From IMG/VR virus record IMGVR_UViG_3300029745_000045: 17,317 bases of DNA; one strand, 5' to 3'. Below, piece after piece: positions 1 through 4,748 of the stretch. The translations under genes and the position numbers were made by a program. The first letter of the stretch is position 1. The number at the start of each line of letters is the position of its first letter. Origin of the DNA: a virus (taxonomy: Duplodnaviria; Heunggongvirae; Uroviricota; Caudoviricetes). Below the pieces are notes generated by a model that did not search any database, was not told the origin of the DNA, and saw nothing but the letters and a program-made list of their open reading frames with translations.

Positions 1-2
1 CG

Positions 3-131
3 GAACCATCCCCGGAACTGCTTCCGGAACCACAGGCGGAAGATGTCACCACGGAAAATGGTGATATTCAGCCGGAGCCACCGGTGACGGATATGACAGA
101 CACACAGCCAGAATCGGGCACAATGCTGTAA
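3..131 (+). CDS. 3' end of an upstream gene (partial, unknown product; acidic Pro/Glu-rich C-terminal tail)
   Basis: Open frame from the window edge to TAA at 129-131, translating ...EPSPELLPEPQAEDVTTENGDIQPEPPVTDMTDTQPESGTML. No start in window; identity not recognised. Confidence 0.3.
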   Translation, partial: EPSPELLPEPQAEDVTTENGDIQPEPPVTDMTDTQPESGTML

Positions 132-206
132 CGGTGAGTCAGGGTCATCAGTAAAGAGCTGGTGGCCCTTTTGTTGTTGTGAGCTTCCGAGTACGGGAGA
201 CGGGGT

Positions 207-422
207 ATGTACCAGATGGAAAAAATCACAACAGGTGTGTCATACACCACGTCAGCGGTGGGAACGGGCTACTGGTTCCTGCAGTTGCTGGACAGGGTTT
301 CCCCGTCTCAGTGGGCGGCAATAGGCGTGCTGGGGAGTCTGCTGTTTGGGCTGCTGACATATCTGACTAACCTGTATTTCAAAATCAGAGAGGACCGGCG
401 TAAGGCGGCGCGGGGAGAATGA
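207..422 (+). CDS. S: Class II holin (phage 21 S-like pinholin), 71 aa with possible second start at Met4 (68 aa)
   Basis: Two hydrophobic segments ([18 protein letters not shown] and [18 protein letters not shown]) and a charged C-terminus [13 protein letters not shown]; close resemblance to recalled phage 21 S sequence; M-Y-Q-M dual-start arrangement; GGAG-type RBS upstream; immediately precedes the endolysin. Confidence 0.8.
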
Positions 423-426
423 ACTG

Positions 427-960
427 GTGAGCAGAAAACTCCGCTATGGTTTATCGGCTGCCGTTCTGGCGCTGATTGCCGCTGGCGCTTCTGCGCCTGA
501 CATTCTCGACCAGTTTCTGGATGAAAAAGAAGGCAACCACACCACAGCATACCGTGATGGTGCGGGTATCTGGACCATCTGCCGTGGAGCCACCCGGGTG
601 GATGGTAAGCCTGTTATTCCTGGCATGAAGCTGTCGAAGGAAAAATGCGACCGGGTTAATGCCATTGAGCGTGATAAGGCGCTGGCATGGGTGGAGAAAA
701 ACATCCGGGTGCCACTGACCGAACCCCAGAAAGCGGGGATCGCGTCATTCTGTCCGTACAACATTGGCCCCGGTAAGTGTTTCCCGTCGACGTTTTATAA
801 ACGAATTAATGCTGGTGATCGCAGGGGAGCATGTGAGGCGATTCGCTGGTGGATTAAGGACGGTGGCAGGGACTGCCGTATTCGCTCAAATAACTGTTAC
901 GGTCAGGTATCCCGGCGAGACCAGGAGAGCGCGCTGGCGTGCTGGGGAATCGACAGATAA
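427..960 (+). CDS. R: SAR endolysin (T4-lysozyme-like muramidase, phage 21 R-like)
   Basis: GTG start 4 nt after the holin stop. N-terminal Gly/Ala-rich weakly hydrophobic segment (YGLSAAVLALIAAGASA) typical of a signal-anchor-release domain, followed by the E-x8-D-x5-T catalytic spacing (EGNHTTAYRDGAGIWT). Confidence 0.85.
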   Translation: MSRKLRYGLSAAVLALIAAGASAPDILDQFLDEKEGNHTTAYRDGAGIWTICRGATRVDGKPVIPGMKLSKEKCDRVNAIERDKALAWVEKNIRVPLTEPQKAGIASFCPYNIGPGKCFPSTFYKRINAGDRRGACEAIRWWIKDGGRDCRIRSNNCYGQVSRRDQESALACWGIDR

Positions 961-1067
961 GCAGAATATTTTGCTGAAAAATGACGTTGGCCAACGCGGG
1001 CGGATAACACGAAATCCTGCGAGCTGGCAAAATGTAAGTGAATAAAGTCAGGAACATTATTTCACGC

Positions 1068-1100
1068 AGAGGCACCGTAATGGTGCCTTTGTCATTTCTG
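1068..1100 (+). terminator. Candidate intrinsic terminator downstream of the endolysin
   Basis: Hairpin aggcacc-gtaat-ggtgcct (1070-1088) followed by the T-rich run TTGTCATTTCTG. The T tract is interrupted, so it is probably weak. Confidence 0.4.
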
Positions 1101-1151
1101 CGCTTCGCACAAGCGTAAATAAACCAAAGAACCTTTCAGGATGAGCCCTGG

Positions 1152-1199
1152 TGGATAACCGGCAGTGGTCTGGTTAACCCTCTTTGGGCTGGTTATTCC
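1152..1199. promoter_or_regulatory. Three direct repeats TGG(A/T)TAACC-like at 19-bp spacing upstream of the antirepressor gene
   Basis: TGGATAACC at 1152, TGGTTAACC at 1171 and TGGTTATTCC at 1190, read directly from the sequence, 35-80 bp upstream of the ATG at 1234. Confidence 0.3.
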
Positions 1200-1233
1200 T
1201 GTGCGCAGGGTTCATCACTAAAAGGAATCAACC

Positions 1234-1929
1234 ATGAAAGAGATGATTTCTGTCGATCATGAAATATCCATGAGTAGTCTGGATTTTCTGAATAACATTA
1301 TTAATCCAGCCCGGGCAGAAGCCGGAGAAGTCCCTCATGAACCGCGTAAGTTTCTTGCAAAAATTGAGGATGAGCTAGAGCTTGATGGAACCGGAAAAAA
1401 ATTCCGGTTAAACAATAACCAGACAAGAACGGCATACTATGATCTGGATTTTGACCAGATGATGCTCGTTGGCATGAGGGAGTCAAAGGCCGTTCGTCGT
1501 TCTGTGCTGGCAAGACTCAAAGCGATGCATGGTATTCAGATCCCCCGGACTTTACCTGAGGCGTTGCGATTTGCGGCAAAACTGGCTGAACAGAAAGCAG
1601 TGCTGGAAAATCAACTGGCAATAGCAGCGCCGAAGGCTGAATTTGTTGATAACTATGTTGAAGCATCTGGTCTGATGGGATTCCGGGAAGTTGCTAAGTT
1701 ACTCGGTATCAAAGAAACCGATTTCCGGCTGTTTTTGTTGGAGAACGGAATAATGTATCGCCTCGCTGGAAAAATGACGCCTTACTCGCATCACCTGGAT
1801 GCGGGGCGGTTTAGCGTGAAAACGGGCGAGGCGGGCAATGGTCATGCTTTTACGCAGGTTAAATTCACCCCAAAAGGTGTTGAGTGGATTGCTGGTCTGC
1901 TTGCTGCATGGAGAGCTACCGCAGCATGA
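1234..1929 (+). CDS. Phage antirepressor / regulatory protein (Rha-like N-terminal region, KilA-C/ANT-like C-terminal domain)
   Basis: 231-aa ORF with an AAGGA RBS. The C-terminal half (…AEFVDNYVEASGLMGFREVAKLLGIKETDFRLFLLENGIMYRL…FTQVKFTPKGVEWIAGLL) matches the recalled ANT/KilA-C pattern. Assignment from memory of domain signatures. Confidence 0.65.
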   Translation: MKEMISVDHEISMSSLDFLNNIINPARAEAGEVPHEPRKFLAKIEDELELDGTGKKFRLNNNQTRTAYYDLDFDQMMLVGMRESKAVRRSVLARLKAMHGIQIPRTLPEALRFAAKLAEQKAVLENQLAIAAPKAEFVDNYVEASGLMGFREVAKLLGIKETDFRLFLLENGIMYRLAGKMTPYSHHLDAGRFSVKTGEAGNGHAFTQVKFTPKGVEWIAGLLAAWRATAA

Positions 1930-2021
1930 AGATGATAAAAATGGACTGGAAATTTTTGCTGGTCTGGCTGATTCCGTTTTTATGGGTGGTTGCCCAGTTA
2001 ATTACTGCTATCAAGGGGTAA
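1926..2021 (+). CDS. Small single-pass membrane protein, 31 aa (MKMIKMDWKFLLVWLIPFLWVVAQLITAIKG)
   Basis: ATG overlaps the antirepressor TGA (gcATGAag). One hydrophobic helix flanked by Lys residues. Below the ORF-track size cutoff; found by manual translation. Confidence 0.4.
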   Translation: MKMIKMDWKFLLVWLIPFLWVVAQLITAIKG

Positions 2022-2023
2022 AG

Positions 2024-2155
2024 ATGTCAGACAAACTCATAACGCCGGCAAAGGTCCTGTGTGTGATTGTCGGTATTTCATTTTCACTAATGCTGGTTGC
2101 TCTTTTTCTGTCCCTCGCCTGGGTGATGTTGTCTTCGTCGGGGCTGCTGGGGTGA
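2024..2155 (+). CDS. Small single-pass membrane protein, 43 aa (MSDKLITPAKVLCVIVGISFSLMLVALFLSLAWVMLSSSGLLG)
   Basis: ATG at 2024 preceded by AAGGGG (2013-2018); starts 2 nt after the previous small ORF stop; strongly hydrophobic core. C-terminal part of the 1838..2155 track ORF. Confidence 0.45.
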   Translation: MSDKLITPAKVLCVIVGISFSLMLVALFLSLAWVMLSSSGLLG

Positions 2156-2274
2156 CAGTGACTGATGACATCAGCAGAGCGCTGGCTTTTGCTATTAAGT
2201 GGGTGGCTGTTGGTATTGCTGTGTCTCCGATGCTGTATGGGCTGGCAAAACTGGTCATTGCGCTGAAATCGTGA
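2152..2274 (+). CDS. Small membrane protein, ~40 aa (…TVTDDISRALAFAIKWVAVGIAVSPMLYGLAKLVIALKS), putative GTG start
   Basis: GTG at 2152 overlaps the preceding TGA (gGTGA). Hydrophobic core resembles the next small ORF (RALAFAIKWVAVGIAV vs [16 protein letters not shown]). Start codon uncertain. Confidence 0.35.
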   Translation: MTVTDDISRALAFAIKWVAVGIAVSPMLYGLAKLVIALKS

Positions 2275-2285
2275 ACTTTAAAAAG

Positions 2286-2372
2286 ATGAGTGCTGAACTT
2301 ATTCGGGCAATGGCATTTGCCATTCGTATTGTGGCCATTGCTGTTCTGGTCTGGGCAATTCGTTGGTGGTGA
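2286..2372 (+). CDS. Small membrane peptide, 28 aa ([28 protein letters not shown])
   Basis: ATG at 2286; its TGA (2370-2372) sits 1 nt before the Rz ATG at 2374. Hydrophobic and similar to the preceding small ORF. Below the ORF-track cutoff. Confidence 0.35.
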
Positions 2373-2373
2373 T

Positions 2374-2868
2374 ATGAACCGTGTTCTGTGTGTGGTGATT
2401 ATTGTCATGCTGGTAGCCTGTGGTGTGCTTAGTCTGGGGCTGAATCATTACCGTGATAACGCCATAACCTACAAAGAGCAGCGCGATAAAAAAGTCAGTG
2501 AGCTGGAGCAGGCAAATGCAACCATTACTGATATGCAGCAGCGCCAGCGTGATGTTGCTGCACTTGATGCCAGATACTCGAGGGAATTAGCCGATGCGAG
2601 AGCTGAAAATGAAACTCTGCGCGCTGACGTTGCCGCTGGTCGTAAGCGCCTGCGGGTCAACGCCACCTGCCCCGGTACCGTGCGTGAAGCCACCGGCACC
2701 TCCGGCGTGGATAATGCAACCGGCCCCCGACTGGCAGACACCGCTGAACGGGATTATTTCACTCTCAGAGAGCGGTTGATGCTGATGCAGAAGCAGCTGG
2801 AAGGGGCGCAGGAATATATCCGCACTCAGTGCACTAAGCTGGCTTTTTATTATCCGGAGGATATATGA
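2374..2868 (+). CDS. Rz: Rz i-spanin (inner-membrane spanin subunit)
   Basis: Internal ATG of the 2290..2868 track ORF. N-terminal TM segment then …[16 protein letters not shown]…[45 protein letters not shown]…[37 protein letters not shown], closely matching recalled lambda Rz. Confidence 0.85.
2594..2779 (+). CDS. Rz1: Rz1 o-spanin (outer-membrane lipoprotein) embedded in the +1 frame of Rz
   Basis: Entirely inside Rz in another frame. Lipobox VSAC, then Pro-rich …[27 protein letters not shown], matching recalled lambda Rz1. True start may be the internal Met at 2609. Confidence 0.8.
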
Positions 2869-3089
2869 AGAAATTACGGGTAACCGTAGAACCTTTTCAG
2901 GGAACAATTCCGTTCCGTATTTTGCAGCGTGGTCGTGTTCTTGTTGAAGGTTCGTTCAGTGGTAAATGTACGCAATTACACTCCCGGACCTTTCAGGTGA
3001 ATGCCACGAATGAAGAGCTAACCGTTGAGTGTACGATGAATACCGCTAAATGCCGCATGGTATCCGCTGCATTACAGCGAGTGTGTTGA
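2865..3089 (+). CDS. Hypothetical protein, 74 aa, translationally coupled to Rz
   Basis: ATG overlaps the Rz stop (ATGA) with a GGAGG RBS. No recognised family, no lipobox, no TM segment. Confidence 0.45.
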
Positions 3090-3287
3090 GCGACCTTATT
3101 ATCCATGCGCGGTATTGTCGCCGTATCCCCGCATTAACAGAGACCGCAGCCCGACCGGGAGACTCCTCTGCGCGAGTGTGCGGGGATAATCAAAAACGAT
3201 ACACACCGGGGTTTACCGCGTTAACGGAGCGCGGCGTTGTCCCCTCATAGTCGCCTGTCCGGTGCGATGGTGGAAGAAACCGAACGT

Positions 3288-3488
3288 TCATTTCTCGTTA
3301 TTTTTCATGCTGGCCGGGCGCAGATGCGTTGCATCTGTTGCCAGCCTTCTCCTGCAGGCTTCAATAACCCACGCTGAAAAGTTACCGGACCCTTTATGCT
3401 CAAGGGCTATGTTGATTTGTTCAATTATGTGATTGGGGAAACGGATATTGCGGGTTGTGGTTCTGCGGGTCCGGTTTTTCGATGACAT
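3288..3488 (-). CDS. ylcI: YlcI/YnfO-family small protein (DUF3950-like), prophage moron
   Basis: 66 aa, MSSKNRTRRTTTRNIRFPNHIIEQINIALEHKGSGNFSAWVIEACRRRL…, closely resembling recalled E. coli cryptic-prophage YlcI. Opposite orientation to flanking late genes. Confidence 0.65.
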   Translation of the reverse strand: MSSKNRTRRTTTRNIRFPNHIIEQINIALEHKGSGNFSAWVIEACRRRLATDATHLRPASMKNNEK

Positions 3489-3529
3489 ATTTATTTCCTT
3501 TACTGATTGTCATATGACGGGGATTTTAC

Positions 3530-3895
3530 ATGGCTGAGCTTCGTACACTCCAGAGCAGAATCAAAACACTGAATACCCGACGGGTGAATATTCTGAAGGG
3601 TGAACAGCGTCGTGTCAGTGGCAGTGCACGTGTTTCCCTCAAGCGTCATATCTGGCTCAGGGACGCCGGGCAGTGCTGTATCTGTGGTCGTGTGGTTGAC
3701 CTCTGTGACAGTGAACTTGATCACCGAATTGCACTTCAGTTCGGTGGTGGTAATGAGGAGACGAATCTCTGGACGCTCTGTACCGAATGCCATCGACAAA
3801 AGTCTGCTCGTGAAGCGGCGGGTGGTATGCCGGACCCGACGCTGCCGGAGGTGTCCGGAGGTAGTGGCAGAGCGGACGACATCATCGGACTGTAA
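3530..3895 (+). CDS. HNH endonuclease (phage packaging-associated)
   Basis: Cys-rich HNH motif (CCICG…ELDHRIALQFGG…NLWTLCTECHRQK) and position just upstream of the terminase genes, as in HK97-like cos phages. Confidence 0.85.
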   Translation: MAELRTLQSRIKTLNTRRVNILKGEQRRVSGSARVSLKRHIWLRDAGQCCICGRVVDLCDSELDHRIALQFGGGNEETNLWTLCTECHRQKSAREAAGGMPDPTLPEVSGGSGRADDIIGL

Positions 3896-3986
3896 CCCGA
3901 CCCGGGGGGGGATCATCCGGCGTAAAAAACGATCGCTTTGGACACCGCGCCCCCTCTCACGCAGAGAAAAAATTCCCGTTTCAGGG

Positions 3987-4114
3987 CAGTTAACATGTTA
4001 ACTGGCTGCCCGGGCATTTTTGCGGTTTTTATCTTTATTATTCAGTTTGTTGTGCGGAAAAAATGTTAACTGGCTTTTTCAGCAAATGTTAACCAGGCAG
4101 CAGTTAACATTTGC
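3987..4114. repeat. Cluster of GTTAAC-centred palindromes and direct repeats; candidate cos / terminase recognition region
   Basis: Perfect 18-bp palindrome cagttaacatgttaactg (3987-4004); direct repeat ATGTTAACTGGCT at 3996 and 4063; 12-bp inverted arms gcaaatgttaac / gttaacatttgc (4082-4114). A-tract-rich DNA between them. Confidence 0.5.
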
Positions 4115-4184
4115 GGCATGAGACGCCGGGAAAAATGGGCTGAACCATACCCGGCTGAGTGCGTTCTGGACCCGGGAGGAGGCT

Positions 4185-4748
4185 GTGCTGACAACGCAAA
4201 AACGAAAATTTGCGCTGGCGCTCATGTCCGGGAAAAACAAAACAGCGTCAGCCATTGCCGCCGGTTATTCGGCGAAGACCGCCAGGGTTAAAGGCTCGCA
4301 GCTGGCAAAAGATCCGGAGGTGCTTGCGTTTATAGCCCGTAAACAATGCGAGACGGTGGAGGTGGATGAGGTTCCTGTTTACCGGCAGAAAAAATCAGAG
4401 CAGGAGGATAAACCCCGTCGCCGTGAGGCGGCTGCAATACCACAGCCGGACGAAAACAATCCGGAGATGCCACCGTCCGCGGTGATGTCTCCTGGTATTG
4501 AATATATGGAGGATGGTCTTCCCGATCCGGTGAAAGCCATGGGGCGGATCCTGGTGGAAAACCTCTGCATTGATCCGAAACTGGCACTGGATGCGGCCTG
4601 GCGTCTGGCGCAGTTCACGCACCATAAAAAAGGGGATACCGGGAAAAAATCGGCAAAAGGTGATGCCGCGAAAAAAGCGGCTAACCGTTTTGCGGTGCCA
4701 CCGCCACCCAGACTGGTGGTGAATAACGATAATGAGGGCAACGGATGA
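4185..4748 (+). CDS. terS: Terminase small subunit
   Basis: GTG start with GGGAGGAGG RBS. N-terminal HTH-like motif (KTASAIAAGYSAKTARVKGSQLAKDPEVLAFI) typical of phage small terminase subunits. Stop overlaps the large-subunit start (ATGA). Confidence 0.8.
   Translation: MLTTQKRKFALALMSGKNKTASAIAAGYSAKTARVKGSQLAKDPEVLAFIARKQCETVEVDEVPVYRQKKSEQEDKPRRREAAAIPQPDENNPEMPPSAVMSPGIEYMEDGLPDPVKAMGRILVENLCIDPKLALDAAWRLAQFTHHKKGDTGKKSAKGDAAKKAANRFAVPPPPRLVVNNDNEGNG

Follow-up and report, generated by a model that had tools for sequence, protein, structure and literature searches.

What is a gene labelled 'antirepressor' doing between the endolysin and spanin genes of a phage lysis cassette, and does its late transcription imply late synthesis of its product? 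The question is raised by a 17,317-nucleotide (nt) stretch of DNA from a virus of the Caudoviricetes (IMG/VR virus record IMGVR_UViG_3300029745_000045), here called the window. In it, the genes for holin (S) and endolysin (R) are separated from those for the spanins (Rz and Rz1) by a hairpin, the antirepressor-labelled gene (ant) and four small membrane open reading frames (micro-ORFs m1-m4), and a 74-amino-acid (aa) ORF, orf74, follows Rz. This anatomy had been read from the DNA in an earlier annotation (the original prediction), and it was borne out: all the elements named were located on the + strand, at or near the positions predicted, with the micro-ORF coordinates refined, and the proposed interruption of ~1.4 kb after the endolysin gene measures 1413 nt from R stop to Rz start. 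The ORF search and the promoter scan covered the + strand of window 1-4300. What is new here is a conserved leader, predicted to hide the Shine-Dalgarno (SD) sequence of ant, which changes the reading of the cargo gene; the split cassette itself adds nothing new.

The structured leader upstream of ant

The ant start codon is preceded by a structured element of ~135 nt (window 1099-1226), composed of the hairpin P0 and a leader RNA whose segments are listed in Table 1. Segments B-B′ and C-C′ build a long hairpin in which the SD sequence of ant is paired, and A-A′ is an alternative helix. Because A adjoins B and A′ adjoins C′ (with 0-1 nt between A and B), A-A′ would cross B-B′, and the two helices are expected to be mutually exclusive. 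When 22 divergent leaders were folded singly, the same P0 and B-B′/C-C′ hairpin were obtained, with dG values of -40 to -53 kcal/mol; the SD was paired at 5/5 positions in the minimum free energy (MFE) structure of most of them.

MAFFT put the leaders out of register at A/A′ and halfway along helix B, and RNAalifold applied to the result gave only 17 pairs. A covariance model (CM) was built from a homogeneous subset of eight leaders and then used for realignment. It yielded 83 + 14 matches, with the window matching at 1093-1237 (133 bits), and none in ant-less cassettes. Realigned in this way, 34 distinct sequences have 96.3% of their cells paired, as against 84.7% in shuffles, and 18 of 30 pairs are changed on both sides, as against 9.5 in shuffles; neither value was reached in any of 500 shuffles. 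Helices 2 and 3, which hold the SD, are paired in 97-99%. In a control in which the 3′ partners were slid by 1-3 columns, pairing fell to 33-53%. Compensatory changes reach the bases flanking the SD (CCTTT/AAAGG versus CCTTA/TAAGG), and the frequency of G-U pairs makes the structure specific to the sense (+) strand.

Helix A-A′ comprises 6-8 contiguous pairs in 18/18 leader types, formed by at least 10 different sequences, such as CCAAAGA/TCTTTGG, CCCGAG/CTCGGG, CCACAGAG/CTCTGTGG, CTCAGAA/TTCTGAG and CACCGA/TCGGTG. In a register-free swap test, duplexes of A with its own A′ had a mean of 7.06 pairs, compared with 4.59 for cross-combinations. The MFE structure of the nascent RNA ending at A′ contains A-A′ in 17/22 leaders, and that of the full-length leader pairs the SD.

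In the most stable predicted fold, the ant SD pairs with a segment ~90 nt upstream. A-A′, incompatible with this SD-sequestering fold, would form first on the nascent RNA, and the likeliest course of events is that nascent transcripts offer a brief window for initiation before the leader closes, so that a potentially harmful regulator would be kept at a low dose. A trans-acting trigger for the leader is equally possible. Judging from the computed fold, translation of the cargo is probably gated separately from transcription; with its SD sequestered by a conserved leader, late transcription of ant would probably not amount to free late translation.

SD sequences hidden by long-distance pairing, with a kinetic folding trap, are known from the maturation-protein gene of phage MS2 and from hok mRNA. 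The window leader resembles these systems in the pairing of its SD with an upstream segment and in an alternative helix predicted to come first on the nascent chain, but it has no sequence or structural homology to them, and its kinetics are predicted from folding energies only. Phages P1 (c4), N15 (CA RNA) and P4 (CI RNA) also place a terminator and a structured RNA, which limit expression, before antirepressor-type genes; their RNAs, however, are processed antisense molecules acting in trans. The window leader has no Rfam match. None of the Rfam 15 covariance models matched window 1-4300 at E≤1, and slices of 221-251 nt from the window and from P22 gave chance matches only, all far below gathering scores. 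The leader appears to be a well-supported RNA element that is undescribed in Rfam and in the searchable literature.

The immI region of P22 offers a further parallel. Here too an 'antirepressor'-labelled gene and a terminator lie within a Q-type late operon, in which the downstream late genes need read-through: P22 ant is embedded, co-oriented, between genes 16 and 9, has its own terminator and the sar antisense RNA, and its expression is tightly limited by RNA. It differs from the window in having its own ant promoter, the Arc/Mnt repressors and a product of P22_AR_N + P22_AR_C composition; control in the window would be exerted by a leader in cis and not by any known antisense RNA.

Cargo genes behind the leader

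The ~135 nt before the ant start codon accompany the gene into Plesiomonas (81% nt identity) and Yersinia (65%). The same leader also precedes genes of other composition, namely KilAC, P22_AR_N + ORF11CD3 (933W ant), pRha + ORF11CD3 (including P22 rha), E. coli Rha, AntA, KilA-N + ORF11CD3 and TerB-like genes and, weakly (E 1.6e-4), an HNH_3 gene (TerB-like and HNH_3 loci: L115, 133-273; L044, 886-1025; L140, 310-443). Its occurrence before the TerB-like and, weakly, HNH_3 genes means that the leader is not restricted to regulators of the Ant/Rha/KilA type. It always stands directly upstream of a start codon, in coding orientation, and a hairpin with a T-run precedes P0 wherever upstream sequence was examined. 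Two non-homologous ant alleles, those of the window and of 933W, lie behind the same 273-nt leader stretch, and the swap between them falls exactly at the start codon. The portable unit thus consists of the terminator-like hairpin, P0, the switch and the cargo. Such a unit would allow accessory regulators to sit in a Q-driven late operon with limited translation. That the ~135-nt element represents an undescribed family of bistable translational-control RNAs, forming the 5′ end of a portable terminator-leader-cargo cassette by which lambdoid phages, P22 (rha) and 933W (ant) among them, would place potentially toxic accessory regulators in the Q-dependent late operon and confine their translation to a brief or conditional window, is a tentative proposal, to which we give somewhat less than even chances.

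The rha locus of P22, like that of phi80 and the E. coli Rha genes, has the same terminator, P0 and leader (CM 44.8 bits, E 1.3e-7) in a slot beside the spanin genes, but its cargo is Phage_pRha + ORF11CD3 and its slot comes after Rz, not before it. In the P22 record (L088, BK000583), the annotated GTG start of rha, at 39575, falls inside the leader match (39501-39641). Within 39501-39646, translation from the ATG at 39644, behind the conserved SD GAAGAAGG, would give a protein of 178 aa, matching the 182-183-aa E. coli Rha proteins, and the annotated start of P22 rha probably lies 23 codons upstream of the true one.

In a Plesiomonas prophage the KilAC gene again lies between endolysin and spanin genes, but the lysis genes are not homologous to those of the window, from which it follows that the endolysin-spanin junction recruits the module independently. 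This prophage carries two tandem units of leader and cargo (L090, 4859-5004 and 6352-6481), the first with a KilAC and the second with an AntA gene, flanked by an M15 endolysin and a DUF2514 spanin; its cassette is otherwise non-homologous to that of the window. The KilAC homologue stands just after Rz in Yersinia, where Rz directly follows R, and in Providencia it is found in an early pR-type operon, adjoining a CI/Cro pair.

The window Ant itself belongs to the KilAC family (PF03374, 'ANT'; 98 bits, gathering cut-off 25.3) and matches PHROGs labelled 'anti-repressor Ant'. It has 1401 homologues across Enterobacterales, typically of 231-237 aa and with PF03374 only, and its allele is present in 229 of 5426 complete E. 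coli genomes (≥99% identity in 226). The idea that it is a truncated Bro-N/KilAC protein was rejected, full-length homologues of this size being the norm. P22 Ant, as taken from the P22 record, consists of P22_AR_N and P22_AR_C (PF10547 + PF10548); the window Ant has neither domain and no BLASTP similarity to P22 Ant (best E-value 1.7). It is likewise unrelated to the 933W ant product (189 aa), and no PDB sequence matched it. In structure prediction, its KilAC domain resembles the DNA-binding winged helix-turn-helix of MerR-type proteins, and it is more likely that the protein regulates by binding DNA than that it binds repressors in the P22 manner. The label 'antirepressor' is a weak one, a domain name that does not show the protein to bind repressors. 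Growth of E. coli is inhibited by a KilA-C domain from Gp07 of phage phi11 (PMC5944126). In phage Phi24B, an ant gene that is expressed early speeds induction (PMC3064807); this gene, characterised by Fogg et al., is located upstream of qut and distinct from the ant of lysis cassettes. The original prediction, that an antirepressor expressed late could act on resident or incoming prophage repressors, is not supported, given the lack of similarity to P22 Ant, the MerR-like KilAC model and the sequestered SD.

The split cassette and its genes

The DNA examined here belongs to a lambdoid E. coli prophage of the 933W or Shiga toxin (Stx) phage type; it is the late lysis cassette, a mosaic in which several slots can take cargo. 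The chromosomes of two human Shiga toxin-producing E. coli (STEC) isolates match window 150-3600 with 100% identity, and in them every ORF has a RefSeq annotation and the flanks hold tRNA genes and a sialate esterase gene upstream and YlcI, HNH and terminase genes downstream. Of the 5426 complete E. coli genomes, 4984 contain related DNA, as do 460 phage records, most of them of Stx-converting phages. The annotation of phage 933W (AF125520), which dates from 1999, gives the order S, R, ant, Rz, Rz1, bor and describes ant as 'putative antirepressor protein Ant ... possible regulation of host cell lysis'; the order seen in the window is also annotated in Stx1 phage phi-O153, Lys8385Vzw, PhiR5_1 and O157:H7 strain 86-24. 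The split, which the original prediction had presented as an interruption of the canonical order, is already known and ordinary, the standard layout of Stx-type prophages, and in 79/79 related cassettes R and Rz are kept apart. The arrangement has been described, but a functional explanation was not found in the searchable literature, which also yielded no paper testing the lysis-cassette ant, the micro-ORFs, orf74 or the leader.

Table 1. Features of the lysis region, in window coordinates
Feature	Position	Strand	Evidence and remarks
Terminator-like hairpin with T-run, directly upstream of holin gene	141-169	+	listed by consensus scan
S, S21-type holin (class II, pinholin family), 71 aa	207-422	+	Pfam PF04971, E 9e-33
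R, lysozyme-family endolysin, 177 aa, signal-anchor-release (SAR)-like N-terminus	427-960	+	Pfam PF00959, E 2e-24
Non-coding stretch R to ant, 273 nt	961-1233	+	
Terminator-like hairpin 'T-b', CAGAGGCACC-GTAAT-GGTGCCTTTG + T-rich run; 5′ edge of cargo module	1067-1099	+	fold z -4.3
P0 hairpin (TGCGCTT / AAGCGTA)	1099-1117	+	99% of cells paired; 2/4 pairs change on both sides
Leader RNA, ~105 nt, predicted bistable	1124-1226	+	folds, covariation, CM match
Leader segment A	1124-1130	+	
Leader segment B	1132-1150	+	
Leader segment C	1151-1163	+	
Leader segment D	1164-1180	+	
Leader segment A′	1181-1187	+	
Leader segment C′	1188-1199	+	
Leader 6-nt bulge	1200-1205	+	
Leader segment B′	1206-1225	+	includes SD AAAGGA (1221-1226)
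ant, cargo gene, 231-aa KilAC-domain protein (annotated 'antirepressor')	1234-1929	+	Pfam PF03374, residues 125-224
m1, 31-aa single-pass membrane ORF	1926-2021	+	PHROG 6632; ATGA overlap with ant stop
m2, 43-aa single-pass membrane ORF	2024-2155	+	PHROG 4906
m3, 38 aa, GTG start, N-truncated membrane protein copy	2158-2274	+	PHROG 1115/3246/4493
m4, 28-aa paralogue of m3	2286-2372	+	PHROG 4493/3246; stop 1 nt before Rz ATG
Rz, i-spanin, 164 aa, N-terminal transmembrane (TM) segment	2374-2868	+	PF03245, E 5.5e-50; hydropathy 3.12
Rz1, o-spanin lipoprotein, 61 aa, lipobox VVSAC	2594-2779	+	PF06085, E 3.5e-21; +1 frame of Rz
orf74, soluble all-beta protein, 74 aa	2865-3089	+	ATGA overlap with Rz TGA; GGAGG 5-9 nt upstream

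In lambda and phage 21, R adjoins Rz. The window has in common with the canonical phage 21/lambda cassette an S21-family holin, a lysozyme with a SAR-like N-terminus and embedded Rz/Rz1 genes, but its R and Rz are held apart by the hairpin, leader, cargo and four membrane ORFs; nor does it resemble P22, in which genes 19 and 15 overlap. The lysis region of 933W has the same gene order, with S, R, the 270-nt leader between R and ant, m2 and Rz homologous at 75-91% nt identity, and its leader RNA gives the strongest CM match (149 bits). It differs in its non-homologous ant, in having m2 as its only micro-ORF (unannotated), and in the opposite-strand bor gene that replaces orf74 after Rz.

Among 80 viral contigs encoding close relatives of Rz, 79 R-Rz intervals were classified. 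The shortest measures 297 nt, so a contiguous S-R-Rz order was found in none of the relatives, nor in the window. Every one of the 79 has a terminator-like hairpin followed by a T-run, and immediately before Rz there are one or more small membrane ORFs. The commonest types are R-p6632-m1-m2-m3-m4-Rz (642 nt, 25 loci) and R-p6632-Rz (297-298 nt, 24 loci); those bearing ant are a minority. Breakpoints were located with blastn at the ant ATG and at m2. Ant-less relatives have 90-92% identity on both flanks, the presence/absence pattern of a moron in the sense of Hendrix and Juhala; a promoter upstream and a terminator downstream of the gene were not seen, the hairpin lying upstream of ant and the ant stop overlapping the next ORF.

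Hairpin T-b, whose arms (1067-1076/1082-1091) are followed by TTTGTCATTTCT and whose T-rich tail within the 1067-1099 element is TCATTTCT, is kept in front of both ant alleles. In ant-less relatives the place of T-b, at an equal distance from R, is taken by a hairpin of unrelated sequence and more canonical form, AAAACCCCGTTTG...CAAGCGGGGTTTTGTGTTT with a T-run, and each of the 79 intervals has one version or the other. A sigma-70-like promoter was not found on the + strand anywhere in window 1-4300, including the interval between R and Rz. In lambda and 933W, Q-modified RNA polymerase passes the terminators across the late operon. By analogy, the whole stretch would be transcribed from pR′ by Q-modified, terminator-resistant polymerase, and the hairpin would stop only unmodified polymerase, leaving Rz/Rz1 connected to S/R in lytic growth. 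Given the missing promoter and this read-through biology, Rz and Rz1 would be co-transcribed with S and R.

The holin matches PF04971 over 63/64 profile positions, which places it in the class II S21 family, and has Met codons at positions 1 and 4. The endolysin is predicted to be a SAR-type lysozyme, with an N-terminus (LSAAVLALIAAGASAP) that is Ala/Gly-rich and weakly hydrophobic (mean Kyte-Doolittle hydropathy 1.82). The ratio of nonsynonymous to synonymous polymorphism (pN/pS) is 0.12 for S and 0.11 for R. The S-R junction is a second cargo slot, in which many relatives carry a DUF1327/YdfR gene (L004, 1779-2123; L089, 2299-2643); in the window this slot (423-426) is empty, a gap of 4 nt. 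In such prophages, according to a 2026 preprint, the PasA/PasC small RNA (sRNA) genes lie in the interval from the sialate esterase gene to the holin gene; the loci concerned in the Pas and anti-sRNA papers lie upstream of S.

Each micro-ORF encodes a 17-residue stretch with a mean hydropathy of 1.9-2.8, compared with 2.0 and 3.1 for the TM segments of S and Rz. Wherever alleles suffice, pN/pS is lowest in the proposed frame: 0.08 for m3 (1.0 and 6.3 in the other two frames), 0.23 for the p6632/m1 family, 0.37 for m4 and 0.47 for m2. For m1, which was found as an exact sequence in public collections, there are two alleles only and the proposed frame does not give the lowest ratio, so that the evidence for coding comes from the p6632 relatives. 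As judged from sequence, the micro-ORFs and orf74 are not chance ORFs. Full-length m2 occurs in 276 phage records, mostly of Stx phages and often unannotated. The micro-ORFs have no Pfam or NCBIfam match, and all their PHROGs are labelled 'unknown function'. Their number and family vary among near-identical phages, from one to five ORFs, some of them truncated. That they came as part of the ant insertion was considered and rejected, as the commonest relatives carry micro-ORFs without ant.

The paralogues m3 and m4 are both N-terminally shortened in the window, full-length members of the family having 50-60 aa and a basic N-terminus (M-KYKR-LLRL...). Comparison of window 2158-2372 with the R-Rz intervals of L052, L053 and L045 suggests that the m3/m4 array arose by recombination between repeated units.

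Rz1 is embedded in the +1 frame of Rz and has a lipobox Cys, as expected of a two-component spanin; pN/pS is 0.39 for Rz and 0.49 for orf74. Between the ant stop and orf74, each gene either overlaps the next by 4 nt or lies 1-11 nt away from it, and the genes so form one translationally coupled block. The orf74 ATG overlaps the Rz stop in 28/34 loci, where Rz has 164 aa; in the other 6/34, Rz has 155 aa and orf74 begins 23 nt after its stop. The i-spanin thus has a periplasmic C-terminus that varies with the module that follows it. Homology to the 933W Rz ceases ~50 nt before the Rz stop codon (window 2820-2868).

In the product of orf74 the most hydrophobic stretch reaches only 0.56. The 49 homologues of this protein come without exception from E. 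coli or Salmonella, with identities as low as 51% and lengths that are mostly ~74 aa, and the gene is present in 1177/5426 complete E. coli genomes. The statement that it belongs to no recognised family was upheld by the database searches: no Pfam, NCBIfam or PDB sequence matched, and only PHROG 2571, 'unknown function', was hit. A profile search of 1.84 billion representatives gave 47 matches, mostly short proteins without a Pfam family together with stray repeat proteins. The AlphaFold2 model (predicted local distance difference test score 89.7) is all-beta, and its structural matches are generic beta-sandwiches. orf74 is the commonest occupant of a variable slot after Rz, which may instead hold bor, Rha or TonB-like genes.

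The ~200-nt non-coding stretch that follows orf74 (window 3090-3287) is kept in relatives with other post-Rz cargo (L001, 933W). Beyond it lies a YlcI/DUF3950 gene on the - strand (3288-3488), with HNH and terminase genes after that. In the STEC prophage of 100% identity, RefSeq flags the portal gene as frameshifted (window ~8619 onward; L003, 14470-15451), and this prophage may be defective for virion production.

Alternative readings and significance

We consider it probable, at roughly 0.7, that the window holds a mosaic cassette of the 933W type, transcribed by Q read-through, in which leader-gated cargo, a DNA-binding KilAC regulator and a coupled block of small genes are combined. Several points weigh against this reading. 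The alignment used for covariation was fitted to the structure of the model, and its sequences are related, which inflates such measures. The registers of A-A′ differ by 1-2 columns, so that this helix could not be counted with a standard tool and rests on our own swap test. The kinetic window is one mechanism among several: the leader might instead respond to an sRNA, a protein or temperature, or the cargo might regulate its own synthesis. That polymerase would pass the hairpin and co-transcribe Rz/Rz1 is transferred from the Q biology of lambda and 933W, and Q itself lies outside the window. A simple consensus terminator scan listed neither version of the hairpin, for which reason both are called only 'terminator-like'.

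Other accounts of the same locus can be measured against this evidence. Were the insert and its micro-proteins regulators of lysis, tuning pinholin triggering, SAR-endolysin release or spanin activity, this would agree with the wording of the 933W annotation, with a small membrane ORF before Rz in every cassette, with the purifying selection seen in m3, and with the coupling of the micro-ORFs to Rz and the many records of full-length m2. However, they have no homology to known holins, antiholins or spanins and no Pfam or NCBIfam family, they vary as freely in near-identical phages as dispensable accessory genes would, and lambda, P22 and the Yersinia relative have Rz directly after R; such a role seems unlikely. 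There is only a small chance that the 231-aa product acts as a genuine antirepressor, synthesised without restraint at a late stage of the lytic cycle and inactivating the repressors of co-resident or incoming lambdoid prophages (cross-induction or anti-immunity). Its Pfam and PHROG names, the Providencia homologue beside CI/Cro, the induction-speeding but different and early ant of Phi24B, and the many lambdoid prophages of E. coli strains with the cassette (a median of 2 and a maximum of 16 related places per genome) speak for it. Yet it has no domain or similarity in common with P22 Ant, the experimentally defined antirepressor, the model of its KilAC domain has a DNA-binding fold like that of MerR, the sequestered SD argues against free expression, the same leader and slot hold cargo that is not of antirepressor type (TerB-like, KilA-N), and the literature search returned no test of this gene.

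The two remaining accounts concern the nucleic acid itself. If the hairpin were an efficient terminator, with Rz/Rz1 and the cargo expressed from a promoter of their own, possibly in the lysogen as well, ant would be a classical moron; a hairpin with a T-run does follow R in all relatives, in two unrelated sequences, and closely related phages differ in whether they carry the cargo. The scans, however, found no sigma-70-like promoter on the + strand between R and Rz, the spacer of ~7-40 nt between hairpin and leader is taken up by P0, the genes from ant to orf74 are packed in operon-like fashion, and late-operon terminators are passed by Q-modified polymerase in lambda and 933W, which makes this very unlikely. 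Still more improbable is that the leader acts as DNA, a recombination or cassette-boundary site promoting cargo swaps. It would explain why cargo is exchanged exactly at the ATG behind an element common to unrelated genes, but not the sense-strand specificity implied by the G-U pairs, a 3′ arm that always includes the SD, compensatory changes beside it, or the constant position and orientation before a start codon.

For the reading of leader-gated cargo, the consequences reach beyond this prophage. If it is true, position in a late operon would be no predictor of late protein expression for the whole Ant/Rha/KilA/Bro-like class. The antirepressor label on a gene of major enterohaemorrhagic E. 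coli lineages (O157:H7 86-24, O145, O111) is not evidence for late cross-induction of prophages. The small membrane genes before Rz, among them m2, which is unannotated in most Stx phage records, are candidate lysis accessories in phages whose lysis releases Shiga toxin. Henthorn and Friedman reportedly found in 1995 that rha is harmful to phage growth in IHF-deficient hosts. The leader in front of the window ant, 933W ant, P22 rha and other such genes offers a testable handle on how these long-unexplained late-region genes may be restrained.

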